64,000 bases of DNA from Chthoniobacteraceae bacterium (GTDB lineage Bacteria; Verrucomicrobiota; Verrucomicrobiia; Chthoniobacterales; Chthoniobacteraceae), in contig JBBCKI010000034.1 in assembly GCA_037190965.1 (NCBI GenBank), positions 32,001 to 96,000 on the forward strand, written 5' to 3'. The notes beneath the pieces are model-generated. The model saw only the letters and a list, made by a program, of their open reading frames with translations. It was not told the DNA's origin and did no database searches. Position 1 is the stretch's first letter; every line of letters begins with the position of its first letter. A program made the position numbers and the translations under genes. This document shows, piece after piece, positions 10,648-46,513 of this stretch.

Positions 10648-11035
10648 TAGGGTGGATGGTGCGGTAGGGCAGCCTGGCGTGTAGGCTGCGGCAATGCTCA
10701 GTCGAGAGAGTCTGAATGCTGATATATACGTAGATGCCAATTTGTATTTGATTTTATAGGCCGGTCGCGGGAAGCAGTGAGATGTGTTGGCCGGTTGGAT
10801 TGCTTTCCGCAGATGGTCTCATTCTCCGCACTCCATAGAAACAATGTCACGGGGAGGCGCAGGTGCTTCAAAAATTAAATAAACGTTTCTAATGTGATGG
10901 CGATTGTGTATGACGTTGAAATGGAATGTCACGAGGCTCCGTAGCTGGTTTCACGGGTTCATCGGAATTGAGTCGTTGAAACCGGCGTGCGTCGTCGTTG
11001 TTTCGACCGGATTTCGAGAGGGTCGGGGTTAACTG

Positions 11036-11064
11036 TTGACGAGAGGAGGGCATGTCTGTAAAAT
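11036..11064 (+). promoter_or_regulatory. Sigma70-like promoter of the LacI gene
   Basis: TTGACG, 17-bp spacer, TAAAAT; the -10 box lies inside the operator palindrome. Confidence 0.6.
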
Positions 11065-11074
11065 CACATTTACA
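11057..11074. promoter_or_regulatory. Candidate LacI-family operator, copy 1
   Basis: TGTAAAATCACATTTACA, 5 nt upstream of the regulator ATG. Confidence 0.7.
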
Positions 11075-11079
11075 TTTGT

Positions 11080-12225
11080 ATGATGACACAGCGCCAGATC
11101 GCAAAATCGCTAGGGGTATCGTGTGCCACCGTGGCCAATATCCTGAGCGGAAAGCCGGGTTTGCGGTATAGTCAGGAAACCCGCCAGCGTGTCATCACCG
11201 CTGCGAAGGAGATGGGATATCAGCAGAACCGGGCTTCCCGCGTGATCCGGACGGGCCGTAGTAACCTGATCGGAATCGTGCATTTCGGAGCGGATGTGGA
11301 AGCGGCCCGCCGTGCCAATGAGGAAATATCGAAGTATTGTAGCGCTGCCGGGTTTCATTATCACGTTATGGATATGAACTGGCACGGAGGCAGTGTTGAA
11401 CGGACGCTGAACGAGTTGATTCAGGCCCGGGTGGAGGGCGTCATCATATCGCACATCCAGGAGGTTTTTAACGACAGCCACATCGACGTTTTGACACGGG
11501 CCAGTATTCCGGTGGTTTCGATCAACGGCGACCAGAGAGAGAATGTTCCTGCGGTCTGGGATAATGTCGGCAAGGCCTTTTACGGGTTGACGACTCACCT
11601 GATTCGTCATGGCCACCGCCGTTTGTTGCACATGGGGGCGGTTCCGCCGATTGTCGACACCAAGCATAATCGGAGCGGACGGGAAAGAGCGGTGGGATTT
11701 CACCGCGCGATTCGGGACGCGCAGGGAACGGTGGAAGTGTTGAATGAGGAACAGTTTTTCGCCCTTTGGCCTCTTGAGGATTCGACCGACACCCGGGTGA
11801 GGGGATTTCACATCATCCAGGACTCAAAACTTTACGAGTTGCTGAGCAAGCCCAACTATTTGTTCTGCAAACGGTTGTTCGCCACCGGCGTGCTGCCCGA
11901 TGCGGTCGTTTGCCTCAATGACATGTACGCCATGGAGGTGATCGCGGCCGGCCTGGAGTGTGGAATTCGTGTTCCTGAGGATCTCGCGCTTACCGGTTAT
12001 GACAATGACCGGATAGGGGGGTTCCCCGCATTTGGATTGACCACTGCGGAGCAGGATATCGAGGGGCTTTGCTCGGCCGCAGTCAAAACGTTGATCGAGC
12101 GAATCAAAAATCCTCGTGCAGAGGTCGTGTGTCAGACCTACGATTCCAAACTCGTGCTCCGCACATCATGTGGCCGCAATGTCAAACTGCGGAAGCCAGC
12201 GGCAAGGAAGGCCGTCAAAGTCTGA
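11080..12225 (+). CDS. LacI-family transcriptional regulator
   Basis: HTH TQRQIAKSLGVSCATVANIL; hinge ETRQRV..AAKEMGY; PDAVVCLND and VPEDLALTGYD. Confidence 0.93.
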   Translation: MMTQRQIAKSLGVSCATVANILSGKPGLRYSQETRQRVITAAKEMGYQQNRASRVIRTGRSNLIGIVHFGADVEAARRANEEISKYCSAAGFHYHVMDMNWHGGSVERTLNELIQARVEGVIISHIQEVFNDSHIDVLTRASIPVVSINGDQRENVPAVWDNVGKAFYGLTTHLIRHGHRRLLHMGAVPPIVDTKHNRSGRERAVGFHRAIRDAQGTVEVLNEEQFFALWPLEDSTDTRVRGFHIIQDSKLYELLSKPNYLFCKRLFATGVLPDAVVCLNDMYAMEVIAAGLECGIRVPEDLALTGYDNDRIGGFPAFGLTTAEQDIEGLCSAAVKTLIERIKNPRAEVVCQTYDSKLVLRTSCGRNVKLRKPAARKAVKV

Positions 12226-12260
12226 GGGCTCTTTCCAACTTCTGAGGGCTCTTTCCAACT
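12221..12260 (+). repeat. Perfect 20-bp tandem duplication spanning the LacI stop codon
   Basis: TCTGAGGGCTCTTTCCAACT twice in a row. Confidence 0.9.
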
Positions 12261-12348
12261 GACCGGGGTTGATCGCGGTCATTGTTCAGGCCCGTCGCAT
12301 TCGGACCTCGCCAAAGCTGATGCGGGTCGCAACGGCCGGAGAAGACGC

Positions 12349-12368
12349 GCTCCCTTCGAAAAGGGAGC
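12349..12368. terminator. Hairpin between convergent genes (possible terminator)
   Basis: GCTCCCTT-CGAA-AAGGGAGC. Confidence 0.45.
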
Positions 12369-12396
12369 TCCACATCTCCTCCTTTCTCTTCTGCTC

Positions 12397-15246
12397 CTAT
12401 GGATTGAGGTTTCGGAAGTAGACGGTGCGGAACCGGACTTTGCTATTGGAATCCAGATACCGCTCCAGAATCGCATGTTGCCGCTGCTCTCCCGTGACCT
12501 GTAAATTCCCGCTGGAAGTCTGCTTGAGGGATTGGCCTATCGTATAGACTCCGAACACGTTGCTTCGGGTGGTGATAAAGTTGCTGATGCTTCGCACCAT
12601 TTCCTCGCTATCCTCACCGCCGTCTGCAATGCCCTTGATTTCAACAATCTCTCCCGGGCTGTCAAAGCCATTGGTGTAGCCATATTTAAAGGTGGAGGTG
12701 AAGTCGAGAATATTGTTCACGAGCGTGTTAGCCTCGGTCTCACTGAGCCGCGTGTTGGCATTGGTCGTGCTTTTCCGGGCATTTAGGAGAAATGCTTTCA
12801 AAGGCGATGAACGAGTGATTTTGAACGGCTCCACCTTGTTATTGATATTGATTCTCCCTGCGCCGGTTCCATGAGGGGAGAGTAGGGCGGCTGCGGCGGG
12901 GGATACATCGGCTGGTACGGTAAAGAGGTCCATCAAAGCCCAGTCGGGGACTTCCTTGATGGTCGTGTCCGTGCTTGTCGTGCCTTTCGTAGCCTGGAGA
13001 CGAAGTGTGCGCCAAGAAACCCCCCCTTTTGTATTTTCCGCTTTCCCTTCAATTCCGGTATGGACAAACCCCAGTTCCGCGGCGGATTTGACGATTCCGG
13101 GGCGGCCTTTGGATGGGTCTTTCGGATAAGGAACGCGAAAGCTGACGTCTGTCACTTTGTTGGCGCTTGTATGATCCCGCGGCGGGCGTCCGCCGCTGGG
13201 ATTAATTACGGAGCTGTTCAGGAGGCTAACAGGAGTATTCGCCGCGCCGAAGGTGTGTTCGTCGTTCTCAAACCAATCACGATAGGTCGCATTGACGCGG
13301 GGGTCATCGGTCATGAAGCTGCCGATAGCGGGAATTTCATCTGGGCCTGGTTCAGGAATTCCGCCTTGGGCTGTAATAGCGATGGGGAAGCCTAATGTGC
13401 CCCCATCCTTTGCGGGGGGATTTCCTAGTGGAGCAAGCTCAATGCGGCTTGCCTTGGCGGCTTCAGCGGCATCCTTCGCGATGGTCAAACCGTAGCGCAC
13501 ATTGATTTTCACCGGGTCGGGAAGAGGGGCTTTGACCTTGTTGTCCCTGTAGTAGAACTCAAACATCAGGGTCTTGTACCCCCCTGCATTGAGCATACGG
13601 TTTCCTCCAATGATGTTCTTCTGTTCAATTACATAGGAATTTTTCCTGTCATTTGCAATGAATGCATCCTGCCCATCGGCAAGGAAGGCATATCCTTCTT
13701 GATCCGCCTGGAAGATATACATGCATAACCTTTTTCCCGGTTCAGGCTCGAGTAAATCGACCGAGTCGATTCCCCCGTTTGCCGAAAGGTGCAGTTCTAC
13801 ATAAAGTTTGATTTTAAGTCGTCCTGTATGCGGAGGAGTAGTCTCCAACGCATCAGCCCTCCAGACTCCAAGCTCCGTTATGTAAAGGCGGCGCGGGCTT
13901 CCGATGAAAGTGTCGTCTGCTCCGGCGCTGACTGAGCCACTGACGCGGGTGAATTTCTTGAGGTTCTTATCGTATTTGACTCTGATGGGTTCGATGAAGC
14001 TTTTTGCCGATTCCACTGATCGAACGTACTCAATAATCCCAATGGCCAATTGTCCGAGTCGGTCGGGATCGCTATCGAAATACTTGGCTTGAAATGATTT
14101 GGAGGTGGCAGATGATGGGACCATCGGCCAATCGGTACGCTCGAGATATTTGACCAGTTTCAGCAACACGTTGCTGAGTTTGGTTGGATCGATCACATCT
14201 TCAACAGTGCCCGTTTCAGTAACTCTCTCGACCCATCCGGGATCGGTGTTATCGACTTTCAGAATGTCGAGGAAGTCATTATTGCCTGCAAGGCTTTTTT
14301 GGGTAGTGAGTACAATGCGCTTTTCGTTGAAGAAAGTGGTTTGCGGATCGTGATTGTAGTGAGTGAGGTCGAACTTGTTCTGGCGAAGCTTGGTGGCGAA
14401 ATTCGGGATCCGTCGGGCGTCGTTTGGAGAATTGAAGAAGTCTTTGAGTGTCCCAAAGTTGTCGGCGGAGATATAGTTATGAAACGCTTCGGCGTCATTT
14501 TCGGTAAAACCGGGGATCGCTGCAAGACTGATCCGTGTCGGACTGCCGGCGGAGAGTGTGTTCTTTGTGTTGGTGCCGCTCCAGGCGAGGTTGAGATTGA
14601 CCTTGGTGCTTTCGTCGTCAGCCCAGAAAGCGTAACGGCCGATGATTGGATCATACGACGGGTCGCTCTTATTGGTGACAATGCTGGGCGCTTCAGCCTT
14701 ATCCAACCGCCCGCTTTCACGGACATAGACCCATTTGACCTGCATAAGTCGGGCCGCGTCGGTGATCAGGTGTTCGCCTGCGTTGTCCCAGGTGGCTATG
14801 TTCAGGTTTGGGGGTTGCAACACGGCATCCAGAGTGCCGCCACTGGGAATTCCGGAATGGAGCGGGACGATTTTGGCCGCGTTTTTGTTCGTGCCGCCCA
14901 ACACGGCTCCGGTGAGTACCGTGCGTTCGTCAATGTCTAGTGTTGAGCCATTATCCTCTTCCGCCCCCAGCACGAGTTGCCCAGGCTGGCTGATCCAGTT
15001 GCGTCTGATGTCGCCGGTTTCCTTGTTCAGCGTTGCTGTAATGTGGTTGATGCCCCGCTCTGCCATTTGGGTGGACATTACCTCATTGACGTAGGAGACC
15101 GATGCACCGCGCTCGACGCGCAACGAATCGGACATGGCCAGGATCATGATTGCTATGAGGACGAGAAAGATCAGCGTCGTGATGAGGGCAGCGGCAGATT
15201 CCATCTTGGGGCCGCGGCCAGGAGGGCGTAAGGGAGTAGGCTTCAT
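12397..15246 (-). CDS. Verru_Chthon cassette protein A-like (large PilX-like pilin)
   Basis: PilX-like N-terminus AALITTLIFLVLIAIMIL without Glu5; WISQPG, WVYV, IGRYAFWADDESTKVNLN, PDWALMDLF, GRININ and TTRSNVF.VY.IGQ; last of four pilin-like genes. Confidence 0.85.
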   Translation of the reverse strand: MKPTPLRPPGRGPKMESAAALITTLIFLVLIAIMILAMSDSLRVERGASVSYVNEVMSTQMAERGINHITATLNKETGDIRRNWISQPGQLVLGAEEDNGSTLDIDERTVLTGAVLGGTNKNAAKIVPLHSGIPSGGTLDAVLQPPNLNIATWDNAGEHLITDAARLMQVKWVYVRESGRLDKAEAPSIVTNKSDPSYDPIIGRYAFWADDESTKVNLNLAWSGTNTKNTLSAGSPTRISLAAIPGFTENDAEAFHNYISADNFGTLKDFFNSPNDARRIPNFATKLRQNKFDLTHYNHDPQTTFFNEKRIVLTTQKSLAGNNDFLDILKVDNTDPGWVERVTETGTVEDVIDPTKLSNVLLKLVKYLERTDWPMVPSSATSKSFQAKYFDSDPDRLGQLAIGIIEYVRSVESAKSFIEPIRVKYDKNLKKFTRVSGSVSAGADDTFIGSPRRLYITELGVWRADALETTPPHTGRLKIKLYVELHLSANGGIDSVDLLEPEPGKRLCMYIFQADQEGYAFLADGQDAFIANDRKNSYVIEQKNIIGGNRMLNAGGYKTLMFEFYYRDNKVKAPLPDPVKINVRYGLTIAKDAAEAAKASRIELAPLGNPPAKDGGTLGFPIAITAQGGIPEPGPDEIPAIGSFMTDDPRVNATYRDWFENDEHTFGAANTPVSLLNSSVINPSGGRPPRDHTSANKVTDVSFRVPYPKDPSKGRPGIVKSAAELGFVHTGIEGKAENTKGGVSWRTLRLQATKGTTSTDTTIKEVPDWALMDLFTVPADVSPAAAALLSPHGTGAGRININNKVEPFKITRSSPLKAFLLNARKSTTNANTRLSETEANTLVNNILDFTSTFKYGYTNGFDSPGEIVEIKGIADGGEDSEEMVRSISNFITTRSNVFGVYTIGQSLKQTSSGNLQVTGEQRQHAILERYLDSNSKVRFRTVYFRNLNP

Positions 15247-15266
15247 GGCAACAGGAGGGTTGATCG

Positions 15267-16193
15267 CTAGCGTGAATTGATAAGGGTGATGGATGTCGTA
15301 TGGGCTTGGACACCCCCGTGGATGGCTTTGAGTGTGGAATCGCCGAGGACGCTCGCCACGAATACATCCGCGTTGGCCGCAAGATTGGCTTTCGCCTGAA
15401 GGCTTTGGGTGAGACGGGCGGCGCTACGGGCATCAATGGTTGCGATGCTGACCCTGATTGATCTTGGAAGTGATCCGGGGGGGAGGCTGACTCCCTTGCT
15501 ATCGGTGTACCCGGAGCGGGAATTGAAGTCGCCGGAGATGGTCTGACCGTAGGCGTCCAGCGGTTCAAACCAAAGGCCGACGACGTTTTCTGACATCAGG
15601 CCGAGATACTTGTTGGTATTGTCAGCGGGTGCCATATTATCAAGGATTGTGTCGCTGAGCCAGGCCTTTCCCGGTTGCTGATGGATTAGATAATAATTTA
15701 CATCCCTGGGGGTGACAAACAGGCGGCATAGATTCGCTTTGTGGTCTGGCGTCCAACGGATGAAGTAACCCAGAACGGCGATATCGCCCTGTGAAGTATT
15801 GACCGAAGCGGGAGCCTGCCAAAAGAGCGTATGCCCGCTCCCATACTTGGTATTCAAAATCGAAGTGGGCGGTTTTTGCGGGTTGTGAATCATCTGGAGG
15901 CTGGCCGTATTATTAGGAACGATAGGCGGCAGCGCGCATTGCAGGTCGCGCGTAATGAAGTCGAGGATGACTCGTGCGCTTTGTTGGCGGGAGGTGCGCT
16001 TTTGGGTCATGACCCAAACGTTACTGACGTTCTGCGCTACTGCGCCCAAGATGACGATCAGCAGGGCAAAGACGGAAAGGGCGGTGAGCAACTCGACCAG
16101 GGAGAACGCCTGAAGCCGACTGGGGCGTGATGTCGATGCTTGAAGCACGCCATCAAAAGGGAAGGTCTGTGGCGGGGGGCATTTATTTGTCAT
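15267..16193 (-). CDS. Verru_Chthon cassette protein C-like (prepilin-type, PulJ/PilW-like)
   Basis: Cleavage/methylation motif A|FSLVELLTAL; AR..LD.ITRDL..A, GH.LFWQAP, GYFIRW and LPRSIRVSI. Confidence 0.85.
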   Translation of the reverse strand: MTNKCPPPQTFPFDGVLQASTSRPSRLQAFSLVELLTALSVFALLIVILGAVAQNVSNVWVMTQKRTSRQQSARVILDFITRDLQCALPPIVPNNTASLQMIHNPQKPPTSILNTKYGSGHTLFWQAPASVNTSQGDIAVLGYFIRWTPDHKANLCRLFVTPRDVNYYLIHQQPGKAWLSDTILDNMAPADNTNKYLGLMSENVVGLWFEPLDAYGQTISGDFNSRSGYTDSKGVSLPPGSLPRSIRVSIATIDARSAARLTQSLQAKANLAANADVFVASVLGDSTLKAIHGGVQAHTTSITLINSR

Positions 16194-16656
16194 AGCGTGC
16201 TAGATTGATGCGGAACGTTTTCTTAAAAATGTCCTTCGGGTAAGGCCAACTGAACTCGATTTTCGCCTCATAGAGATTGATGACACCCGTCGTGGCGGTA
16301 CTGAACTCTGGTTCCGCCGTTACTGTAACCGTGCAAGTGTAAAGCGGGTTGTTGTTGGTGGTCAGAGTAGCGCCCTCCATGCTGAAGTAGGTCAATTCGC
16401 CTGTCGTCGATTTACTGAGTTTTTCGAGCGAGTTATCGGTGCCCGACGCGGGCGGATCGAAAGGCCGCGCTCGCAATCCGGCTGCGACAGTCTTGGCGAT
16501 ATCAGAGAGAACGGTGTCCTCTGAGGACTCGCGGCCTGAGCTCATCAGCGAGCCCAGTAGGCCAAGCATGGAGATGATGCCGAAAGCCGCTATGCCGATG
16601 GCAATGGTGACTTCAACCAGGCTGAATGCTTTTTTTGTCTGAAAGCGTCGTTTCAT
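16183..16656 (-). CDS. Verru_Chthon cassette protein B-like (prepilin-type, PulI/PilV-like)
   Basis: Start re-called at ATG 16656; KKA|FSLVEVTIAIGIAAFGIISMLGLL; YFSMEG motif. Confidence 0.85.
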   Translation of the reverse strand: MKRRFQTKKAFSLVEVTIAIGIAAFGIISMLGLLGSLMSSGRESSEDTVLSDIAKTVAAGLRARPFDPPASGTDNSLEKLSKSTTGELTYFSMEGATLTTNNNPLYTCTVTVTAEPEFSTATTGVINLYEAKIEFSWPYPKDIFKKTFRINLARYDK

Positions 16657-16810
16657 GACTGAGAGGTGGGGATTGAATTGCAATTAGATGGAGCTTTGAC
16701 GGGGCCTTTTCACCGCCGGTTCTGCAGCGCTTTCTCCAGGCGGTTCCTGCTGTATCAATAAAGCCCGCTTTTGGCGGGCTGCATCCATCTTCTATCAGGG
16801 ACGCGCTTCC

Positions 16811-17566
16811 CTAGGGTCGAGTGATGACGCTATGGCCGGTTGCGGCGATAATGGTGATGGTGTAGGTATTGGCAGGATCTCCCGAAGAGTTTTTGTTGGT
16901 GTAAACAACCGTACCGCCGGAAATTGTGCCTTCCGCAAGGGTGAGGACCCCCGGATTGTGGGTGTTGCTTAGCAGGCCACCCGAGGGCAGAAAGAGCAAA
17001 TACCGAAAACCATTTGTAGAATTGAGGGTGGAGCTTCCAAACTTGATGGTCGGAAAAGAGGGGGGGACGCTTGTTGCCGTCAAGGTGCCGGGGCTCTCCA
17101 TCTCATCGGTTCCGGGGGATTTGAAGATGGTTCCTGCTCGCAGCGTCTCCCATCTCGAGGCTTGCTTCCAATTGGTGGGTGTCAATGCGGTTCCGTCAGT
17201 CTTCGGCGTGATCTCCCAAATGCTAACGGCGCGCAGATTTCCGTCAACAGAAGGGTCGGTTACGAGAATCAGGGCAGTTAACGCGTTCTTGGCCATCGCG
17301 TTCTGTCTGGCCAGGCTGACGAGGGCGGCGAGGCGATCGCCCTCTCCCGTAAGGGATGAACTGCTGGCGGTTCCCTTGAGGCCAAAAATCACCATGCCTG
17401 TGGCAAGGGCGATAATGGCGATCACAACGAGGAGTTCGATCAACGTGAATGCTCCTCGTCTTTTCTTGGGGGCGAGAAGAAGCGAGGGTGTTGAAGATCC
17501 CTTCATCCAGTCGATGAGGCGCTGGGCGTGGAATTCGGTGTAGATTCGATGTGGGGGAGGGGCCAT
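16811..17566 (-). CDS. Verru_Chthon cassette protein D-like (prepilin-type, PulH/FimT-like)
   Basis: RRGA|FTLIELLVVIAII; LARQNAMAKN, F.PSG and I...TG motifs; the true start may be a downstream Met. Confidence 0.85.
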   Translation of the reverse strand: MAPPPHRIYTEFHAQRLIDWMKGSSTPSLLLAPKKRRGAFTLIELLVVIAIIALATGMVIFGLKGTASSSSLTGEGDRLAALVSLARQNAMAKNALTALILVTDPSVDGNLRAVSIWEITPKTDGTALTPTNWKQASRWETLRAGTIFKSPGTDEMESPGTLTATSVPPSFPTIKFGSSTLNSTNGFRYLLFLPSGGLLSNTHNPGVLTLAEGTISGGTVVYTNKNSSGDPANTYTITIIAATGHSVITRP

Positions 17567-17609
17567 AGGATGGCTGGAGCGTTTTCGCCGGATGAATCAT
17601 TTGTAGTCC

Positions 17610-17627
17610 TGTAAAAGCGCGTTTACA
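17610..17627. promoter_or_regulatory. Candidate LacI-family operator, copy 2 (upstream of the pilin cassette)
   Basis: TGTAAAAGCGCGTTTACA, 43 nt upstream of the cassette-D ORF start. Confidence 0.7.
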
Positions 17628-17703
17628 AGAAAATTCTTTCTCGACGGGTGCAACTGTGTGCACGACGCCTCTGTTGCCGATTTGGTGAAACCCCTCGGCT
17701 GTT

Positions 17704-17870
17704 CGGAGGGCGAGGTAGTCCGCTCGCGCCGTCGAGCGTGGGATTTGACGCGGAAGAGCGTTTGGCGTCCATCCCTATAGGCTACTTCTGGCAGGGAGGC
17801 GGCTTCAACGGAGGTGCGAAACTGATACCGCCCCCGAGGGTAGCGACGGAAATACCAGTGCTGCTCCGCC
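17704..17870 (+). repeat. REPIN-like (GTAG-REP doublet) element, copy 1, right arm degenerate
   Basis: GTAGTCCGCTCGCGCCGTCGAGCGTGGG at 17715; internal CGTTTGGCGTCCATCCC and terminal CCAGTGCTGC, matching copies 2 and 3. Confidence 0.7.
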
Positions 17871-18081
17871 TATATCTGTACTCGACGTTGCTTCTTCTCA
17901 GCTCGGTTGTAGATTCCAACTCTTGGTTCTGATCTTGGGATAACTCACAGGAGTCTTTTCTGCGCGTTGCAACACGCTGCGCCACATATGGACTTTTTTG
18001 GAAGTTCTCCTAAGGACGGCGCGAATCCACAGCATTTTTATCACCGGTCGAGATTTTTCTTGCCGCCTTCCCATGTTTCGA

Positions 18082-18099
18082 TGTAAACACGCTATTACA
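18082..18099. promoter_or_regulatory. Candidate LacI-family operator, copy 3 (upstream of the PEP-CTERM gene)
   Basis: TGTAAACACGCTATTACA, 102 nt upstream of ATG 18202. Confidence 0.65.
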
Positions 18100-18201
18100 A
18101 ATTCTACCCGCGCCACCTCGAATCCCGCCGCGAGTGACGCGCTTGAAGCCGGAGGCGGGTCGAAACGCCATCGCATCGACTGAATCCCCCATCGAGAAAA
18201 T

Positions 18202-20874: not shown

Positions 20875-20966
20875 TAGAAATTCTTGTTGAATCCAAAAGC
20901 CTACGGGGAATGGCTCTATCTCCCGAGTTACCAGGCTGCTGAATTTTAACATCTCCTGCGGTTTAC

Positions 20967-20992
20967 GGCCGCCCCTCATAGAAGGGGCGGCC
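20967..20992. terminator. Hairpin downstream of the PEP-CTERM gene
   Basis: GGCCGCCCCT-CATAGA-AGGGGCGGCC; no U-tract. Confidence 0.45.
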
Positions 20993-21114
20993 TCCATGAT
21001 AAGCGTCAGGTCATTTATAGGCATGGCGCTCTATGTTCGATGGTACCCTCATGCCTCGATAAAAACTGACAGACTTAACCCCACCTTACCAAAATCAGCA
21101 CCCTCCCAGATATT

Positions 21115-25242: not shown

Positions 25243-25391
25243 AAAGCCCTGACTCGCAACTTTCTATCAAGCGCTTCCCCCTAACAAACCCAATAACCCC
25301 GGCGCTCTGCCTGGCAGTGGCACTTATCATGCTCCTCGCCCAGCAGAGGCCGGGGGCTTCTTCACCAAAGGAACGATTCCCCACCCCAAAA

Positions 25392-27563
25392 ATGGAACTC
25401 CCGAAATGCGGTATGTGGATAGGCACCGGTGTCTATCCGATGAGCAAAGACTATTTTGTCTCCGGTCTCTACGCTCACCAGGCGTGGACCCCTCAGAACT
25501 ATTCTCCGTTGGAGATGATTGACCTGATCCTTAAGGACAATCAGGGAAATCTCGCTCAAGTCTGGGGCTATGGACGTGGGTACGCACCCGCTACGATTGC
25601 CGAATGGGACTACGCTTTGGATGAAATGGGCATTTCGATTCCTTTTCCGGATTGGGAGAAAGGAACGAACATCCGGAGGCAGGATACGCCGGAACTCGAC
25701 AATCATCGGAATCGCCGCGGGGCGGGAGCGCTTCGTTTCATCCGGGAGGCCGCAAAGAAAGACCTCTACACGCTTTTCATCTACGTCGATGCGAGCAAGG
25801 AGTGGTCGAGCCAGTTCCAGAAGGTCGGCGGCAAGCATTACCTTGGCTACGATTTCGGCGAACGCTTCCACTTTGGCATTACGGACCGCAATTTGGAGGG
25901 GAAGAAGCTTGAGGACGTTACGCTGAAGGTCCTTGCCGACGACTTGGTGGAGCGCGTCAGCAAGCATGTCGACCAGCGCCATGCGGATGGGTGGGGGAAC
26001 GTGATGGCGACCAGCACGAACTTCTACATCGACTACGAGGTTGCCGCCGGGACAGACGTGCCGTTGATTGAAGACTTCGCTTTCGAACATCTCAACATGG
26101 CGTCTGCGCTCTCCCGTGGGCTTTATCGCCAGTATAAGCTACCCCTCTGGGGCTCGCATATGGCTCATGAGCATTACTCATGGATCCCCAACTCCAGCGA
26201 CTTCAAGTTCTTTCTCCTGAAGGCGGGCATGTACCAGAAATACATGGCGGGTTGCAAAATCATCATTAACGAAAGCGGGAACTGGTTCGTGGAGGCCTCG
26301 CTCTGTGAGGACTCGCCCAAGCACGAATTCCCGATCGTTCCCCTCAAGCCGAATGAGGTCTCCTGGGGCGGTCACACGCCTCCAAATTTCATTCCCTATA
26401 TCGAAGAGGCGAGGAAGCATTACCATAAGATCGACTACACCGGAGAGGTTCCACGGAAGTATCGGAAAGAGATTTCGGACTTTTATGATTTTGTAAAAGC
26501 CAACGGAACGCCATCCGGACAGCCCCAATCGACCATCGCGATTGCCAAGGGGAATCTTGATTTGTGCAATCATCGTTACAGCCCCAATGCAGCCGTGGCC
26601 GGGGCATTTGCTCTCGCCGATAAAAACCCCGCGTGGTTTGAAGGCGCTCCGGAACGTGGGTGGGAGATTGTGAAGGAAACCTTCTATCCCCGGCCTCCGG
26701 TCCTCGGGCAGTACCAGAACGCGTTTCTCTCCGGGAATCCGTTTGGAATGGTCGATATTGTCAGCTTCGCGCAGGATAACATCGACGCGGCCTTCCTTGC
26801 GGCAAACTACAAGGCTCTCCTCTTTTCGGGATGGAACACCTCCTCCCTGAAGCAATACGAGATTCTCAAAGCCTATGTCGAAAGCGGCGGGACTCTCTTT
26901 ATTTCGATTCCGCACCTCTCCACCAATGTCTCCCGCAACTACGGCGACTATGGAGTGGATGAGTTGGTCAACGGCGGCGACTTCTCGGCGTTGTGCGGGG
27001 TGAAGGTCAAGAAGCGCGGACGGAGAATCTATTGGGCGACGCCTCCGCGTGGCTCCGAAGCTTTGGGAGTCAAATATCCGCGGCGTTTCGGAATTCTTCA
27101 GAATTGCCTGGGGGAAATCGAAATCACCGATCCCACGGTCGAGGCGCTTATCGTCGACGACGAAGAGGCGGAGCCGCTGCTCTTGCGGCGCAAGCTGGGC
27201 AAGGGGACCGTCTATTTTCTGAACTCCTGGGGATACCCCGGAGCACTGAATGAAGATTTCGGCCCGGGGAGCCGCAGCGATTCAGTCGGGTTGATCGGCA
27301 CGATTTATCGGCATATCGCCAAGGAGGCACGCGGCGATGTCTGGATTACCGACGATCAGCATGATGCCGGCACGGAGTGTCGCTTTATCACGTTTTCCTA
27401 CTTTCCGGAGGACGGAACCATCTGTCTTCTGAACATCGACAACACAAACCCGCACAAGGCTTTTCTGCATCGGTGCGGAAAAGTTGAGCAGTTTGAATTG
27501 CAGCCTGGAGAATTCAGAATCATCAAGAGCAACCAGACCTCGGAAGGAAAAGGGAATCCATGA
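25392..27563 (+). CDS. Cytoplasmic hypothetical protein, GH42-like architecture (paralog of 36391-38562)
   Basis: Start re-called at ATG 25392 by alignment to the paralog; YVESGGTLF and LGKGTVYFLN resemble the GATase-like trimerisation domain; no signal peptide. Confidence 0.55.
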   Translation: MELPKCGMWIGTGVYPMSKDYFVSGLYAHQAWTPQNYSPLEMIDLILKDNQGNLAQVWGYGRGYAPATIAEWDYALDEMGISIPFPDWEKGTNIRRQDTPELDNHRNRRGAGALRFIREAAKKDLYTLFIYVDASKEWSSQFQKVGGKHYLGYDFGERFHFGITDRNLEGKKLEDVTLKVLADDLVERVSKHVDQRHADGWGNVMATSTNFYIDYEVAAGTDVPLIEDFAFEHLNMASALSRGLYRQYKLPLWGSHMAHEHYSWIPNSSDFKFFLLKAGMYQKYMAGCKIIINESGNWFVEASLCEDSPKHEFPIVPLKPNEVSWGGHTPPNFIPYIEEARKHYHKIDYTGEVPRKYRKEISDFYDFVKANGTPSGQPQSTIAIAKGNLDLCNHRYSPNAAVAGAFALADKNPAWFEGAPERGWEIVKETFYPRPPVLGQYQNAFLSGNPFGMVDIVSFAQDNIDAAFLAANYKALLFSGWNTSSLKQYEILKAYVESGGTLFISIPHLSTNVSRNYGDYGVDELVNGGDFSALCGVKVKKRGRRIYWATPPRGSEALGVKYPRRFGILQNCLGEIEITDPTVEALIVDDEEAEPLLLRRKLGKGTVYFLNSWGYPGALNEDFGPGSRSDSVGLIGTIYRHIAKEARGDVWITDDQHDAGTECRFITFSYFPEDGTICLLNIDNTNPHKAFLHRCGKVEQFELQPGEFRIIKSNQTSEGKGNP

Positions 27564-29407
27564 GACACAGCAATCTTCGGTTGGCGATACTAACGGCTGC
27601 ATTTCTGACGAGTTCCCATTGGCCGCTAGCCGCCAAGAGTAAAATCAACTCTGCGGAAGCGCGTGTCCGGAGCGATATTGCGGATAGCAAGGCGAAGCCG
27701 CTTTCGGATCGCTTCGCATATTACACCGTCCCCGCGATGAGCAACGTCAAGCGGACGATGCACACCTATCCCGTGGATGGCACGCTGGGCGGACCGGTGC
27801 GGATCGTCGCCGCCAAGGGCGAGTTCGAACCCGCATCCGTCGTATTCTATCCGTTCGCCAATGCAGGGAAGGTGGAATTGAAAGTAAGCGAGCTGGTCGG
27901 AAAGAATGGGAAGATTCCGGCCTCCGCGCTCGATGTGAAGGTCGTCAAAGTCTGGTACCAGACCGGCACGGCATGGTATAGCTACTTTGCCGACACTGCC
28001 GGGCGTGAACTCGTCCCCGAGTTGCTGCTCAATGACGAGAGTCTCGTCAAAGTGGACCAGAAGACCCAGGACAACTACTTGCGCGTGGACCGGCCCAAAC
28101 CACGGGGGACCGAGTATGTGTGGATCAGCAATCCCATGCGGCTTGAGGTTCCCTTCAATGATCATCTTGAGCCGGTTTCCGATACGCCGACGCTTCAGCC
28201 CTTTGCTTTCACGGCGGGAGAGTTCAAGCAGATCTGGTTCACTCTTGAGGCCCCCGGAGACGCGGAGGGGGCCTATTCCGGCACCATCGCCGTCACGGTG
28301 GACGGCAAGCCGCAGGGGGCGATCCCGTTGGAGGTTGTCGTGCTGCCCTTCGAGCTTCCCGATCCTAAGACCAACTATGATCTTAGCCGGGAATATTATA
28401 CCTGCATCTATAACAACAACTACCTGAAGCTCTACCTCAAGAAGAATGGCGGCGACTTGGAAAAGGCAAAGAAACGCCTTTTCAACGAGTACGTCAATAT
28501 GCGCAAGCATAACCTGCTATATCCGATTCTCGACAATTACGATATGGGAGATGACTCCGTCTTGACGGAGCAGTTGGAGACCTACAAGAAGGCGGGCCTG
28601 AGAACCGACGCAATCTTCGGGGCTGTTCCCGCCATTCCCACCTACGATTGGATGATGTTGCCCGAGGTTCGGAGCAACCCCCTCGACAAACAGCCCGCTC
28701 CTCTCGACCTCTACGCCAGAATGGATCGTTCCGCAGAGATCGTTAAGAAGATCGTGGGGCACAGCAATATTTATGCGTTCGGTTGGGATGAACCGGCGAT
28801 GAACCTCCTGGTTTCCGAGCGGCTGCCCTGGAAGTACCTGCAGGAAAAGGGACTGAAGGTCTATACGACCGGGCATGATGGGCATTTGACCTATGGAGGT
28901 TACAATGAGGACTTCATCAACTATGGGGGAAGATATTCCAAGGAGACCTCGGCCAAATGGCATTCCGTAGGCACCAGGATCACCAACTACGCCGCTCCTC
29001 ATACCGGGCCGGAGAATCCCGATTTCGTTCGTAGAACGCACGGAATGGATACTTATCTGGCGGATTGCGACGGTACCAATAACTACATGCTCAACGGAAG
29101 CCCGTGGAATGATTTCGTGGGCGTGGAATACAATTTCCGGAGTTTCAACATGGTCTACCCGGGTATTGACGCTCCGATCGATACCCTCCAATGGGAAGGC
29201 TATCGTGAGGCGATCGATGACGTCAGGTACGCGACGTTGGTCCGGCAACTGGCCCAGAAAGCCATTGCCACCGGTAAAATTGACAACGTTTATCAGGGGC
29301 GGATGGCGCTCCAATGGCTGGCCGTGCTGGATCCGAAGACTTGCGATCTGAATGCCGCCCGGATGGAGATGATCTCCTATATCCTCAAACTCAAAAGCTT
29401 GCTGTAA
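27560..29407 (+). CDS. Secreted GH123/DUF4091-like glycoside hydrolase (putative N-acetylhexosaminidase)
   Basis: Signal peptide; AAKGEFEPAS, FKQIWFTL, LPFELP, catalytic-type WDEP and C-terminal TLQWEGYREAIDDVRY. Confidence 0.65.
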   Translation: MRHSNLRLAILTAAFLTSSHWPLAAKSKINSAEARVRSDIADSKAKPLSDRFAYYTVPAMSNVKRTMHTYPVDGTLGGPVRIVAAKGEFEPASVVFYPFANAGKVELKVSELVGKNGKIPASALDVKVVKVWYQTGTAWYSYFADTAGRELVPELLLNDESLVKVDQKTQDNYLRVDRPKPRGTEYVWISNPMRLEVPFNDHLEPVSDTPTLQPFAFTAGEFKQIWFTLEAPGDAEGAYSGTIAVTVDGKPQGAIPLEVVVLPFELPDPKTNYDLSREYYTCIYNNNYLKLYLKKNGGDLEKAKKRLFNEYVNMRKHNLLYPILDNYDMGDDSVLTEQLETYKKAGLRTDAIFGAVPAIPTYDWMMLPEVRSNPLDKQPAPLDLYARMDRSAEIVKKIVGHSNIYAFGWDEPAMNLLVSERLPWKYLQEKGLKVYTTGHDGHLTYGGYNEDFINYGGRYSKETSAKWHSVGTRITNYAAPHTGPENPDFVRRTHGMDTYLADCDGTNNYMLNGSPWNDFVGVEYNFRSFNMVYPGIDAPIDTLQWEGYREAIDDVRYATLVRQLAQKAIATGKIDNVYQGRMALQWLAVLDPKTCDLNAARMEMISYILKLKSLL

Positions 29408-29427
29408 ACCACCTGGGTATTTGCACA

Positions 29428-31725
29428 ATGAACTCAAAAGCTATGTCCAAACGTTCCCTATTCAGTACGCGGTTTGTGAGGGGGATCTCCTGTTGTTCGA
29501 TCGGGGCTGCTTTGCTTTTTACCACAGCGTTCAACGCGGGCGCTTTCGAAAATGCGGCGGACGCGATGAAGTCGGCTCGCGAGAAACTCAAGGCCTCGGA
29601 TTTTGTCGGGGCCTCCAAGGATGCCGACGAGGCCGCTCGTCTTGCCGGGGCTAATATCGCACAGCGTGCCGACGCGCTGTTTTTTAAGGCGCAGGTCGCG
29701 GAAGGTGAGAAGGACTATGCAAAAGCCTTGGCGGCGGTGGAGGCCGTTCTGGCCGAGCCGGAGCTCTCTCCAAATCATGCGTTTGGTGCAATCGTCAGGA
29801 AAGCTAACCTGCTTGGGAAGGAAGGGAAGAACGAGGAAGCGGCGAAGGTATTCCTCGACGCTGCCGCACACCCGAAGCTCCAAGCCCCCGCGGAAAAGTC
29901 GCGAGTTTTGAGTCAGTTCGCAGAGTTCCATGAGCGCAATAAGGAGCCAGAGAAAGCCGTGGAAATCTACGGGCAAATTCTGGCTGATGCCCAGACGCCG
30001 GTTTTATCGAAGGTCCACGCCCTGAGAAACCGGGCGAAGGTGAGGGTTAGCCAGTTTAAGTTCGACGAGGCGCAGGCCGACTATCAGGAAGCTCTTCGCA
30101 TTCCCGAACTCAAGACCCGGGATAGGGCGATTGTCCTGGGTGACGTTGCGCGAGCATTTTCAGCGCAGGGGGATTCGGAGAAGGCGCTGGAAACCTATGC
30201 CAAGATTCTTGAGGTTGAAGGCTTGACCGATGAGGACAAGAAGGTGGTTTCCGAACGCACTCGCGGGTTCTACAAAAACATCGGTGATGCCAAGCGGATG
30301 AAGAGCCTTCTGGAAGCCCTGGGCGGCGCGAAAACAGCCAGGGAATTTGCGTGGTTGCGTGACTACGCCCAAGTGGCGGAAGCATCGGGGCTTTTGATCG
30401 AGGCCGTCGATATTTGGGGGCAGGCGTTGGCGCTGCCTGAGCTTCCGCCAAAAAATTACACGGAGGCAGCCCTTGGAAAAATGACTTCTCTCGCATCACT
30501 CGGCAGGCGGGAAGAGTTGGCAAAGTTTGCAAGTGAGGTTGCCGAAAATGCGGCATTGGATGAAGAGAGCCGATTCTCTGCCTCACTGATCAAAGCATCG
30601 TTTTCGTCCGGTAAGCCCTCCGTGCTGGCGGCAGGGGCTCTCCCCAAGTCTTCGCTTGATGCTGAAAAGAAGGCAAAGGCATTCGATGTTGCCGGCAAGC
30701 TGCTGATGAGGGTGGGCGATTTTGAGAATGCACGTTTCCTGGGGCATCAGGCAGAAGCCATGTTCCAGAAACGCCCCGAAGTCGTTTACGAGTGCCGCTT
30801 TGTCGATCAAGCGCCCAGTGGCGTGACGGGTTGGTTTGGCTCTTCCATTTTCAAGGATCCCGGGAGCAGGGAGAGTCGTTTCGAGCCTTATAACCAGGCG
30901 GCGGCTGCGAATCTAATCAATGACGTGAACGTCACGCGAAGCGTCGTCAGTGACGGTAAGGCTGGAACGGGTAACGCAGCCTTTTACATGGCTGGGGACG
31001 CCCGGGGCTGGCATATCTTTATCGACTATAAAGATGACCAGATCGAACAAGCGATGGCGGGCCTGGTCGGCGGCGGCAACCTGGAGATGTATTTTACCCC
31101 TGGCAAAGGGGAGTGCTATTATCAATTCATGATCGATGTCCCCGGGGGCAAGACCACGTTTATTCCCTGGACCTCTCCCCATCGGAACTATCGCAAACTG
31201 GATGACTACCTGCAGACACAGATTGCTCCGGTCAAGGACGGGCTGGGAGTCTCCCTGTTTATCCCCTGGGAGGTGGTTTATGACAAGCTCCCCAAGGAGG
31301 GCGAACTGTGGCCGTTCGGGCTCATTAATTTCGCCCGTCAAGGCGGCTTTACATGGGGAAGCGGCCAGACGCATGAAATGAGCCGGTTCGGGAAGGTCCG
31401 ATTTGTAGGAATCGAAAAGGCCCTGCCTGCCATTCGTCGCGCCATCGTCATGAAGGCCTTCGCGAATTACAAAGAGTCGGTCAGGGGTGCCAGGAGGTTC
31501 TGGAACGACGAGGTCAAGGGCGATCGCGCCTTTTTCAACAATGTGCTTGTTCCCGAGATTGCAAAACTCGATGAGCTGGGCAAGCGGGTCACCCCGGATA
31601 TGAGTAAGGAGGATGTAGAATTGCTCTTTGCCCAGGCTGTCCCGAACTGGATGGAATTCAACTACCTTGTGGCCGAGTTGCGGACTCAGTTCTTGAATGA
31701 TCGGCTGTTCTCGCAGGCGAATTAA
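29428..31725 (+). CDS. Secreted TPR-repeat protein with C-terminal CBM9/DOMON-like domain
   Basis: Start re-called at ATG 29428; helical repeats (EKAVEIYGQIL, DEAQADYQEAL, EKALETYAKIL); C-terminal LEMYFTP..YYQF..IPW..P..G..W.F pattern. Confidence 0.7.
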   Translation: MNSKAMSKRSLFSTRFVRGISCCSIGAALLFTTAFNAGAFENAADAMKSAREKLKASDFVGASKDADEAARLAGANIAQRADALFFKAQVAEGEKDYAKALAAVEAVLAEPELSPNHAFGAIVRKANLLGKEGKNEEAAKVFLDAAAHPKLQAPAEKSRVLSQFAEFHERNKEPEKAVEIYGQILADAQTPVLSKVHALRNRAKVRVSQFKFDEAQADYQEALRIPELKTRDRAIVLGDVARAFSAQGDSEKALETYAKILEVEGLTDEDKKVVSERTRGFYKNIGDAKRMKSLLEALGGAKTAREFAWLRDYAQVAEASGLLIEAVDIWGQALALPELPPKNYTEAALGKMTSLASLGRREELAKFASEVAENAALDEESRFSASLIKASFSSGKPSVLAAGALPKSSLDAEKKAKAFDVAGKLLMRVGDFENARFLGHQAEAMFQKRPEVVYECRFVDQAPSGVTGWFGSSIFKDPGSRESRFEPYNQAAAANLINDVNVTRSVVSDGKAGTGNAAFYMAGDARGWHIFIDYKDDQIEQAMAGLVGGGNLEMYFTPGKGECYYQFMIDVPGGKTTFIPWTSPHRNYRKLDDYLQTQIAPVKDGLGVSLFIPWEVVYDKLPKEGELWPFGLINFARQGGFTWGSGQTHEMSRFGKVRFVGIEKALPAIRRAIVMKAFANYKESVRGARRFWNDEVKGDRAFFNNVLVPEIAKLDELGKRVTPDMSKEDVELLFAQAVPNWMEFNYLVAELRTQFLNDRLFSQAN

Positions 31726-31745
31726 AGAGACCGATATCCTATCGG

Positions 31746-31793
31746 AAAGCGGTGGTGGAACGGGGTTTTTCCGATCCTCCATCGCTTTTTTTT
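31746..31793 (+). terminator. Rho-independent terminator
   Basis: Imperfect long stem AAAGCGGTGGTGGAACGG...CCGATCCTCCATCGCTTT followed by a T-run. Confidence 0.65.
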
Positions 31794-31812
31794 GCCCAGA
31801 TCTCCTCGTCGA

Positions 31813-31852
31813 TTGACACTTGATTGATTTCGAGTGTAAATTCGATTTCACA
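31813..31852 (+). promoter_or_regulatory. Sigma70-like promoter with candidate LacI operator copy 4 over the -10 box
   Basis: TTGACA, 18-bp spacer, TAAATT; operator TGTAAATTCGATTTCACA at 31835-31852, 35 nt upstream of ATG 31888. Confidence 0.7.
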
Positions 31853-31887
31853 AACCGTTTTCCAGAACTTATTTCCCCTGTTCCCCC

Positions 31888-36282: not shown

Positions 36283-36390
36283 TTTCGCGACGCAAATTCC
36301 CTTCAATTCATGATGCAGGGCGGGGGTATTGGTCCCGGCCGTTGGTCCCGCTTGTTTAGCTAATTTGCAATCCCTTCGATTCATCAGGAT

Positions 36391-38562: not shown

Positions 38563-38592
38563 GTTTACCGCTTCTACGACATCCCTCTTTTT

Positions 38593-40491: not shown

Positions 40492-40512
40492 TCTTTCCGT
40501 TCACTTTTCATC

Positions 40513-46504: not shown

Positions 46505-46513
46505 GCTTTTATC

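Follow-up and report, generated by a model that had tools for sequence, protein, structure and literature searches.

Gene content of the locus

The DNA analysed here comes from a soil Verrucomicrobium with a 4.2-Mb genome. The window, by which we mean the whole stretch of 64,000 nucleotides, contains the gene of a LacI-family repressor, a cassette of four pilin-like genes read in the order D-B-C-A on the opposite strand, and two operons for surface proteins and glycoside hydrolases (Table 1).

Table 1. Coordinates of the features within the window
Feature	Position	Strand	Details
Predicted lacI promoter-like site, TTGACG-17-TAAAAT	11036..11064	+	10/12 consensus matches, joint best within 10600-18300
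Predicted operator O1 (autoregulatory)	11057-11074	.	TGTAAAATCACATTTACA, 0 mismatches, 29.1 bits
LacI-family repressor, 381 aa	11080..12225	+	PF00356 34.1 bits (cut-off 27), PF13377 84.4 bits
Cassette protein A, 949 aa, predicted GspK/ComZ-like giant tip pilin	12397..15246	-	TIGR02600 280 bits (cut-off 332.3)
Cassette protein C, 308 aa, pseudopilin-like	15267..16193	-	TIGR02599 38.2 bits (cut-off 256.5), HpsC pseudopilin E 3.6e-4, N-terminal QAFSLVELL
Cassette protein B, 166 aa, PilV/GspI-like	16183..16683	-	TIGR02598 45.4 bits (cut-off 51.4), PilV 26.7 bits, motif KKAFSLVEV
Cassette protein D, 251 aa, GspH-like prepilin	16811..17566	-	GspH 46 bits, TIGR02596 45.8 bits (cut-off 70), N_methyl 30.3 bits
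Predicted operator O2, ahead of cassette gene D	17610-17627	.	TGTAAAAGCGCGTTTACA, 0 mismatches, 28.9 bits
Predicted operator O3, ahead of PEP-CTERM gene	18082-18099	.	TGTAAACACGCTATTACA, 1 mismatch, 25.1 bits
PEP-CTERM surface protein, 890 aa	18202..20874	+	PF07589 21.2 bits (cut-off 20.7), signal peptide
Secreted 1375-aa paralogue of GH39-like protein	21115..25242	+	32% identity over 1089 aa to 1132-aa protein
Rest of first operon: 748-aa GH42M-like, 615-aa secreted (unknown family), 803-aa TPR protein	25317..31725	+	
Predicted second-operon promoter-like site, TTGACA-18-TAAATT	31813..31842	+	10/12 matches, best within 20800-36500
Predicted operator O4, second operon	31835-31852	.	TGTAAATTCGATTTCACA, 1 mismatch, 27.3 bits
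Secreted GH39-like (clan GH-A) glycoside hydrolase, 1132 aa	31888..35286	+	Structure model and fold search
Rest of second operon: LamG-like, 723-aa GH42M-like, melibiase-like, GH20, two ABC permease genes, FAD oxidoreductase, GDSL esterase	35302..50682	+	Pfam

The first operon is headed by the PEP-CTERM gene; the 1375-aa gene behind it lacks a separate site and would thus be co-transcribed with it. The second operon is taken to comprise same-strand genes separated by gaps of 0-109 bp, and one of its two ABC permease genes is fused to a solute-binding domain. The two GH42M-like proteins, of 748 aa in the first operon and 723 aa in the second, share 59% identity. The glycoside-hydrolase label given to these genes is borne out: Pfam identifies GH20 and melibiase-type genes in the second operon, and the lead gene of that operon and its first-operon paralogue fold as GH39-like clan GH-A enzymes. 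For the 1132-aa lead protein (model pLDDT 91.4, pTM 0.92) the best match in the fold search was 5jvk_A (GH39; E 1e-17, probability 1.0, TMt 0.62), with GH2 enzymes ranking next, and 5jvk was also the sole PDB match of its sequence profile (E 5e-5). Residues E646, E737 and E769 are invariant in its family.

The pilin-like cassette

All four proteins of the cassette had been assigned to the Verru_Chthon families, whose models are indeed their best or near-best matches, but every one of them scores under the curated NCBIfam cut-off. Protein D passes the 16.3-bit cut-off of the prepilin domain TIGR02532, with 23.3 bits, and has the motif RRGAFTLIELL. The structure model of protein A (pLDDT 88.2) gave weak matches throughout, to ComZ (Z 7.4), GspK (Z 6.7), XcpX (Z 5.6) and a helix-hairpin-helix domain (Z 7.9), all VIA Z-scores being below 8 and Foldseek returning no match at E 0.001 or better; on this model A may be described as weakly GspK/ComZ-like. 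The Verru_Chthon family has no function on record, and a literature search yielded no paper naming it. Contigs encoding A proteins at 58-64% identity to this one are known.

About 14 A-like genes are present in this genome and exactly one cassette lies within the regulon described below. One of the 14 has a LacI gene within 5 kb (P 0.59) and six have one within 15 kb (P 0.006). Linkage to LacI is not general in the cassette family, with a LacI homologue within about 9 kb at none of seven related cassette loci in other genera. The genome encodes pilus or secretion machinery elsewhere, namely five GspE/PilB-type ATPases, four PilT-like ATPases, four to five secretins and one prepilin peptidase.

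A shared palindrome in four promoter regions

The original prediction placed 18-bp palindromes in four promoter regions, and a motif search of the window recovered every one of them. O1 to O4 are even palindromes of the form TGTAAA-N2-CG-N2-TTTACA, the central CG being present in three of the four and replaced by CA in the autoregulatory O1. Classic LacI-family sites measure 14-16 bp, and the outer TGT of O1-O4 sits two bases further from the centre. With up to two mismatches allowed, the window holds six matches where 0.56 are expected, a number reached by none of 100 shuffles; the remaining two of the six, at 31336 and 38978, are both intragenic with low matrix scores. In a matrix scan of the whole window O1-O4 reach 25-29 bits and the next best site 9.6 bits. 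O2 was the only repeat found by an inverted-repeat search of the 646-bp intergenic stretch.

Genome-wide there are three perfect sites, seven with one mismatch and 38 with two, and four of the ten sites with at most one mismatch (O1-O4) fall inside a single stretch of 21 kb. The matrix scan of the genome found eight sites of at least 22 bits, four of which had been used to train the matrix while four were independent of training, and there were none in each of 20 Markov-1 simulated genomes. Outside the window there are four strong matrix sites and one weaker site, and these five stand ahead of the sole genomic paralogues that regulon genes have, and of a heparinase-like gene. The single paralogue of the PEP-CTERM protein that the genome encodes (C45, 47% identity) bears a site; the two paralogues of the 1132-aa protein lie in the first operon and, with a site, on C18; and the Big-domain proteins of C23 and C3, each other's only paralogues, both have sites.

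The predicted overlap with promoters was borne out for O1 and O4, since the -10 hexamers of the lacI and second-operon promoter-like sites lie within them. Both hexamers belong to the best promoter-like matches of their regions, which means that RNA polymerase would be blocked by a dimer sitting there. O2 and O3 precede the cassette and the PEP-CTERM gene as proposed, at 44 bp from the longest-ORF ATG of gene D and at 103 bp, respectively. A start of gene D at Met21 would put O2 104 bp upstream and give a more usual prepilin leader. The consensus promoter scan passed no promoter for O2 or O3; O3 comes after a promoter-like TTGCCG-18-TAAACA, an arrangement repeated ahead of the C45 paralogue.

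The LacI-family protein as the probable binder

The 381-aa protein matches the structures of PurR, CcpA and LacI, down to E 1e-23, and its recognition helix, SCATVANIL, is unique among the LacI paralogues of the genome. Its only close orthologue found (75% identical) is on metagenome contig L021, where O1 is retained as TGTAAAATCACTTTTACA ahead of the gene, with 17 of 18 bases kept between diverged, poorly aligned flanks. This contig keeps the lacI-cassette gene order, with a convergent cassette A gene 64% identical, and has a second site 49 bp ahead of a divergent FG-GAP gene; it ends before the cassette promoter, so that site conservation was compared there for O1. Two 45%-identical LacI homologues from the same genus have TGTAAA...TTTACA with a 7-base spacer ahead of their own genes. 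Both of them carry the helix S[A/C]ATV, and the same two positions are occupied by other residues in paralogues that have different palindromes. According to the accessible text of a survey of the LacI family, even palindromes occur for 1251 of 1303 factors, a central CG for 1173 of the 1303, and autoregulation in 72% (PMC4052901).

Taken together, O1-O4 are most likely the operators of the adjacent LacI-family repressor. The regulatory link put forward in the original prediction came through every in-silico test (clustering, -10 overlap, conservation of O1 and gene order, the unique helix, and sites at paralogues), with binding by this protein being a prediction from sequence.

Proposed mechanism and alternatives

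The best overall explanation, to which we assign a probability of roughly 0.7, is a LacI regulon that includes a pilus-tip-like cassette; the regulon itself is likely on the sequence evidence. LacI would jointly repress four promoters, its own and those of the D-B-C-A cassette, the PEP-CTERM operon and the glycoside-hydrolase/ABC-transporter operon, until a glycan-derived sugar is present. By analogy with the LacI family, a dimer would bind with its hinge residue inserted at the central CG, and a sugar effector would release it from the DNA. As the same palindrome stands in four promoters, the tip cassette is predicted to be co-induced with the glycan-degrading genes. A search for RNA sequencing runs containing this DNA gave none. 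Resemblance to the GspH/I/J/K, ComZ and PilY1 systems suggests that D, B, C and A would together form the tip of a type IV filament with machinery encoded elsewhere. The giant A protein may be its ligand-binding cap, capturing the glycan of the regulon on the cell surface and making it available to anchored and periplasmic enzymes. This capture role is put forward tentatively, by analogy, and on the same footing a role of the cassette in export of the regulon enzymes would be nearly as likely. Membership of the regulon, if true, gives an unstudied cassette family a testable role.

The export role can be cast as a reading of its own, rather unlikely in our estimate, in which the regulon is the same and D-B-C-A makes up a tip, specific for its cargo, on a type II secretion pseudopilus with a shared secretin, recruiting or pushing out the signal-peptide-bearing GH39-like paralogues, the Big/beta-helix proteins and the heparinase-like protein. 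The usual type II gene order is GspH-I-J-K, which the cassette order D-B-C-A matches. GspH is the best match of D, A can be aligned with GspK and XcpX at both ends of the chain and includes a helix-hairpin-helix domain, and most regulon members besides the cytoplasmic enzymes have signal peptides; type II secretion has also been proposed for the alginases of an Opitutales isolate, as far as the accessible text goes (PMC13274419). The structural matches are weak, however, and the 949 aa of A far exceed GspK (280 aa in 3ci0_K), a size nearer to that of the tip proteins on extruded pili, among them ComZ, the best full-length structural match of A. PilY1 is another large tip protein of extruded pili, and A is closer to it in size than to GspK.

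Two further readings dispense with this LacI or with regulation altogether. That the palindrome is bound by another regulator, global or a second paralogue, and lies beside lacI incidentally is improbable: the genome has 21 LacI-family genes, and C42 carries two TGTAAA...TTTACA-like sites, lacking the central CG, roughly 0.8 kb away from the gene of a GntR-type regulator, but the site over lacI's own -10 box is conserved with the orthologue, the recognition helix has no equal in the genome, the half-site tracks the helix across homologues, and the motif occurs in only about nine promoters, far too few for a global regulator. It is more improbable still, to the point of being very hard to credit, that the palindromes arose by chance from AT-rich, -10-like promoter hexamers and regulate nothing. 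TGTAAA does include a TAAA(A)T-like -10 core, a resemblance that by itself could favour placement in promoters, and five sites sit exactly at the expected -10 position. A -10 box nevertheless accounts neither for the second half-site and its fixed spacing of 6 bases nor for the central CG, the simulated genomes yielded nothing comparable to the eight strong sites, L021 retains its site within diverged flanks, and the targets make up complete paralogue sets.

Comparison with known systems

The preferred regulon resembles those of LacI/GalR sugar repressors such as PurR, CcpA and LacI in the helix-turn-helix and periplasmic-binding-protein-like domains of its repressor, the even 18-bp palindrome with central CG, the site on its own promoter and the carbohydrate gene targets. 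It is unlike them in taking in a minor-pseudopilin cassette and PEP-CTERM proteins, targets that the accessible text of the family survey does not mention; Verrucomicrobia have no occurrences in that text either (PMC4052901).

The cassette shares with Verru_Chthon (TIGR02596, TIGR02598, TIGR02599, TIGR02600) the order of its genes and the prepilin-type N-termini of D, B and C, the models being the best matches for A, B and C and the second for D, but A is short (949 aa against a 1296-position model). With GspH-I-J-K (PDB 3ci0, 5vtm) it has in common four genes of which the first is GspH-like, and the long N-terminal hydrophobic helix, helix-hairpin-helix domain and C-terminal sheet of A align with GspK/XcpX. 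Unlike GspK, A is more than three times longer and has a beta-sandwich insert at residues 419-662, the scores being weak (Z 5.6-6.7), and genes for GspC-G and L-M, expected of type II secretion, are absent nearby. Type IVa pilus tips, made of minor pilins and PilY1 as in Myxococcus xanthus (PMC7541494, bioRxiv 10.1101/2021.07.28.454143), likewise come as alternative sets per genome on a common machine. The known sets serve motility, adhesion or DNA uptake and are not known to serve sugar-repressor glycan loci; a PilY1-like gene is absent here. ComZ of Thermus (PDB 6qvi) is, like A, a large tip protein and matches it best over its full length, if weakly (Z 7.4).

A pseudopilin gene within a Verrucomicrobium polysaccharide locus, and many pseudopilin copies in the genome, are also described for the alginate cluster of Verruconatronum alginivorum, and the PulG-like pseudopilin of that cluster is over-expressed on alginate in the Opitutales isolate (PMC13274419). 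Going by the accessible text, that pseudopilin is a single major-type protein, unlike the H-I-J-K-like quartet here, and no operator or repressor link is reported for it (PMC13274419). Finally, the 1132-aa protein has the GH39 enzyme of Bacteroides cellulosilyticus (PDB 5jvk, clan GH-A) as its top fold match but differs from GH39 in having no Pfam GH39 match and in carrying additional beta-sandwich domains at its N- and C-terminal ends. The family of this protein, large and unnamed, counts 466 cluster representatives with E-values of 1e-30 or better, and an atlas search found look-alike clusters in Planctomycetota and Lentisphaerota.

Results

Four promoters of this locus and about five distant ones in the same genome share a common palindrome, which in two cases lies over a -10 box. 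The original prediction had placed four 18-bp copies of TGTAAA-N6-TTTACA in the window, and all four are present as candidate operators O1 to O4 (see the table). Six matches with at most two mismatches occur in the window against 0.56 expected, a number reached in none of 100 shuffles. The whole genome (4.21 Mb, 59% G+C, 73 contigs; the window is G000:C34:32001-96000) holds 3 perfect copies, 7 that differ at one base and 38 that differ at two, and four of its ten best sites fall into one 21-kb stretch of the window, all intergenic. Three of the four window sites have CG at the centre. The -10 hexamer of TTGACG-17-TAAAAT falls under O1 and that of TTGACA-18-TAAATT under O4, each sequence being a top-scoring promoter-like match of its region; at O2 and O3 no match passed the promoter scan. 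O2 lies 44 bp upstream of the first ATG of cassette gene D (104 bp if translation starts at Met21) and O3 103 bp upstream of the PEP-CTERM gene, and a common TTGCxx-18-TAAAxA layout was recognised by eye at O3 and at the sites before the genes on contigs C23 and C45. The -10 box of lacI ends 15 bp ahead of its ATG, so that the leader of its mRNA would be almost nil. CRP sites have the form TGTGA-N6-TCACA, and a CRP/FNR-type site was rejected for the palindrome, in which matching five-base arms stand 8 bases apart.

A symmetrised matrix of the palindrome was trained on six sites (four from the window, two from the metagenome contig L021) and scanned across the genome. Eight sites, four of them training sites, score at least 22 bits and none does so in 20 simulated Markov-1 genomes, and at 17 bits or more 14 sites were observed against a mean of 1.9 in those simulations. 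At 47% identity the C45 protein is the sole genomic paralogue of the window's PEP-CTERM protein. The 1132-aa protein has just two paralogues, the C18 protein and the 1375-aa protein of the window, and the C23 protein has one, which follows the weaker C3 site. The C23 target is followed by a lactonase gene and a D-serine-dehydratase-like gene. No cassette is found on the contigs carrying these outside sites, and hence the predicted regulon contains exactly one. On contig C42 a pair of TGTAAA...TTTACA-like sites stands 20 bp apart; both lack the central CG and score below 14 bits. A 110-aa ORF lies downstream of them, and a gene for a regulator with a GntR-type HTH and a periplasmic-binding domain is about 0.8 kb away.

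Features of the locus and candidate sites elsewhere in the genome; positions are those of the window unless a contig is named
Feature	Position	Strand	Description
P63C-domain protein	5415-6413		E 3.3e-36
GFO/IDH/MocA oxidoreductase and ApbE flavin-transferase genes	8301-10647		just upstream of lacI
O1	11057		perfect palindrome
O1 through lacI start codon	11057-11082
lacI	11080-12225	+	LacI-family protein, 381 aa
Cassette A	12397-15246	-	long hydrophobic helix at N-terminus
Cassette C	15267-16193	-	HpsC pseudopilin also matched
Cassette B	16183-16683	-	PilV also matched
Terminator-like hairpin	16762-16780	-	7 pairs, 6 G-C, weak T tail
Cassette D	16811-17566	-	GspH also matched
O2	17610		perfect palindrome
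ORF over dispersed repeat	17648-17932		probably spurious
Dispersed repeat	17713-17744		core 17714-17738
O3	18082		one mismatch
First operon (predicted)	from 18202	+	PEP-CTERM protein (890 aa), proteins of 1375, 748 and 615 aa, TPR protein
Inverted repeat	21005-21070		21 nt, 71% complementary, 24 nt between arms
O4	31835		one mismatch
Second operon (predicted)	from 31888	+	1132-aa protein, then LamG-like, GH42M-like, melibiase-like, GH20, ABC-transporter genes, FAD oxidoreductase, GDSL esterase
Second trio	60379-61101		small PEP-CTERM protein
Second trio	61070-62422		second LacI-family gene, 450 aa
Second trio	62434-63204		prepilin N_methyl/DUF1559-type protein
Site of at least 22 bits	C23		before 764-aa Big_2/beta-helix protein
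Site of at least 22 bits	C18		before 1184-aa protein
Site of at least 22 bits	C48		before 848-aa heparinase II/III-like protein
Site of at least 22 bits	C45		before 881-aa PEP-CTERM protein
Site of 18.8 bits	C3		before 1129-aa protein
C42 site pair	G000:C42:55997 and 56017 (L053 5998 and 6018)		low-scoring

The likely binder is the product of lacI, which carries a LacI-type HTH (PF00356, 34.1 bits, cut-off 27) and a periplasmic-binding-protein-like effector domain (PF13377, 84.4 bits) and matches the structures of PurR, CcpA and LacI down to E 1e-23, the PurR alignment spanning residues 3-215 and 260-362. No close orthologue was found in 40 relatives (best match 45% identical), and among species representatives the best full-length match has 31% identity. 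Among 25 loci from a metagenome scan one contig was useful, L021 (5405 bp), which encodes a 75%-identical LacI. Immediately ahead of this orthologue is TGTAAAATCACTTTTACA, which shares 17 of 18 bases with O1, and the rest of the upstream region aligns poorly; a second site, TGTAAAATCAATATTACA, lies 49 bp ahead of a divergent FG-GAP repeat gene. Downstream, the contig runs out in a cassette A orthologue (64% identity), of which it carries the C-terminal part, convergent with lacI as in the window. Two 45%-identical LacI homologues in congeners (L079 10295 and L081 11164) have TGTAAATAT(C/G)ATGTTTACA ahead of their own genes, that is, the half-sites of the window palindrome but with an odd spacer of 7 bases. 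The recognition helix reads SCATVANIL in the window and L021 proteins and S(A/C)ATVTNIL in the L079 and L081 homologues; at the two positions that follow the serine of this helix, LacI paralogues whose palindromes differ carry other residues, and none of the other LacI paralogues of this genome has the same helix.

The pseudopilin cassette had been predicted to be a Verru_Chthon D-B-C-A cassette, and this stood for gene order and for the presence of several copies per genome: D, C and A follow in that order at all seven related loci, with B between D and C in three, and the genome has about 14 A-like genes, five of them above the cut-off. Full membership did not stand. Among NCBIfam models the Verru_Chthon set (TIGR02600, TIGR02599, TIGR02598 and TIGR02596) ranks first for A, B and C and second for D. 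None of the four proteins reaches the curated cut-off (A 280 against 332.3, C 38.2 against 256.5, B 45.4 against 51.4, D 45.8 against 70). On these scores we file them as divergent short-form relatives outside the curated Verru_Chthon membership. Prepilin-type N-termini are apparent in D (TIGR02532, 23.3 bits, cut-off 16.3; PF07963, 30.3 bits, cut-off 21.2), in C (PF07963 at 19.4 bits, under the cut-off) and in B, where an AFSLVEV motif is visible. The best match to A across 151 genomes of the family is 44% identical, and orthologues with 58-64% identity were found on contigs of 6.7 to 33 kb. The 128-bp gap between D and B holds a terminator-like hairpin, with which the amount of D could exceed that of B, C and A. 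A short, GC-rich repeat, dispersed in more than 150 copies over most contigs of the genome, accounts for part of the 635 bp that separate the cassette from the PEP-CTERM gene; its copies often form inverted pairs about 150 bp apart, in the manner of a REP or MITE element. Contigs of two DNA runs matched the window through the source strain and this repeat only, and the depth spike in them is due to the repeat; among RNA runs none was listed as containing this DNA. The spacer yielded no tRNA and no Rfam match, either at the gathering threshold or with the E limit relaxed to 1.

The model of A (949 aa) is confident (pLDDT 88.2), and the pilin-like part is divided between the two ends of the protein. 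Foldseek gave no match with E at or below 0.001 (3ci0_K came at E 0.07), and the VIA-align matches are weak, all with Z below 8, which may mean a common arrangement only: residues 213-297 to a ComEA-type helix-hairpin-helix domain (Z 7.9), ComZ as the best full-length match (Z 7.4), GspK (3ci0_K; Z 6.7, 179 aligned), XcpX (5vtm_X; Z 5.6) and Ig-like sandwiches at residues 419-662. Pfam T2SSK has no match in A.

The surface protein does end in a PEP-CTERM sorting motif, as had been claimed, with PF07589 at residues 863-885 marginally above its cut-off (21.2 against 20.7 bits). The 1132-aa protein heading the second operon has no match in Pfam or, by phmmer, among PDB sequences, and its family numbers, at an E limit of 1e-30, at least 466 cluster representatives. 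Its model (pLDDT 91.4) best matches the GH39 enzyme 5jvk_A (E 1e-17, prob 1.0, TMt 0.62), followed by GH2 enzymes; a three-sequence profile also matched 5jvk (E 5e-5), and three glutamates, E646 (part of an HE pair), E737 and E769, do not vary across 50 sequences. The modelled fold thus places it in clan GH-A as a GH39-like protein with the (beta/alpha)8 fold of the solved member 5jvk_A. Given its 1375-aa paralogue, predicted hydrolase genes occur in both operons, and with the GH20 and melibiase-like genes the original prediction of glycoside-hydrolase genes beside the sites holds. The 748-aa protein of the first operon is 59% identical to the 723-aa GH42M-like protein of the second. An inverted repeat in the 241-bp gap between the PEP-CTERM and 1375-aa genes might act as an attenuator or be bound by another factor. 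Upstream of lacI, the GFO/IDH/MocA protein has a twin-arginine-like N-terminus and a weak likeness to glycoside 3-dehydrogenases; the matrix scan of the window gave no operator at its gene or at the ApbE gene. Further upstream, amid small unannotated ORFs, is a protein with the phage-associated P63C domain.

Linkage of such cassettes to LacI is not general: at seven related loci in other genera a search for LacI homologues out to about 9 kb found none. Of the 14 A-like genes in this genome, 6 have a LacI gene no more than 15 kb away (mean for random placement 1.8, P 0.006) and only 1 has one within 5 kb, a proximity modestly above random placement only. A second trio of the same LacI/PEP-CTERM/prepilin-type design stands near the end of the window; the matrix scan found no TGTAAA-type site there, and a Pfam scan of the genome for DUF1559-type pseudopilins gave six weak matches only.

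Discussion

The sites agree with the LacI/GalR norm in being even palindromes with a central CG, in their siting at promoters and in including the regulator's own promoter. Passages of PMC4052901 give even palindromes for 1251 of 1303 LacI-family factors, 1173 with a central CG, and odd ones for only 4%, with 72% of factors autoregulated and more than 75% of sites 30-140 bp ahead of the start codon. By analogy with the family, LacI would bind the predicted operators as a dimer and block RNA polymerase until released by a sugar effector. The enzyme set (GH20, a melibiase-type enzyme, an esterase, and GFO/IDH/MocA, lactonase and D-serine-dehydratase-like proteins) hints that the glycan of this regulon contains amino sugars.

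From their resemblances D, B, C and A may together make up the tip of a type IV filament whose machinery is encoded elsewhere; the genome has five GspE/PilB-type and four PilT-like ATPases, four or five secretins and one prepilin peptidase. The role we favour, with a probability of roughly one in three, is capture of the glycan by the giant A protein as cap. It is favoured because extruded pili typically have large tip proteins, because ComZ is the best full-length match to A, and because no outer-membrane importer is named by Pfam among the genes of the two operons. Service in enzyme export through type II secretion is an almost equally tenable alternative, and the same model of A also aligns, at lower Z, with GspK and XcpX.

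What is new is the predicted regulon at operator level and its conservation in an orthologue, together with a target set complete in its paralogues and the GH39-like assignment, which by modelled fold would place a large unnamed family among the hydrolases. Verru_Chthon-type cassettes occur in many copies in each verrucomicrobial genome; our literature search found no paper naming Verru_Chthon or its four TIGR models, and none joining "minor pseudopilin" with "Verrucomicrobiota". According to PMC13274419, the genes that an Opitutales isolate over-expresses on alginate include one for a pseudopilin; a PulG-like pseudopilin gene, which has 67 homologues across the genome of the isolate, is also described within its alginate cluster. 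The present locus offers a checkable handle on the cassettes, with operator and repressor both defined and with about nine target promoters and a single cassette in the regulon. Should the cassette prove to be co-induced with the hydrolases, direct tests would open on how these abundant glycan degraders of soil and water manage capture or export in the absence of SusC/D-type systems, on the ligand of the giant GspK-like proteins and on the interchange of tips on one filament machine.

Several sets of minor pilins and PilY1 are described for M. xanthus (PMC7541494 and bioRxiv 10.1101/2021.07.28.454143). Extending glycan capture beyond this locus, it is conceivable, if rather improbable, that Verrucomicrobia without SusC/D-type receptors handle polysaccharides by retractile type IV filaments. 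Each glycan regulon would then have its own repressor-controlled H-I-J-K-like tip with a giant cap binding that glycan, and one shared pilus machine would be re-aimed at whichever polymer is present, reeling it to surface enzymes or into the periplasm, much as competence pili do with DNA.
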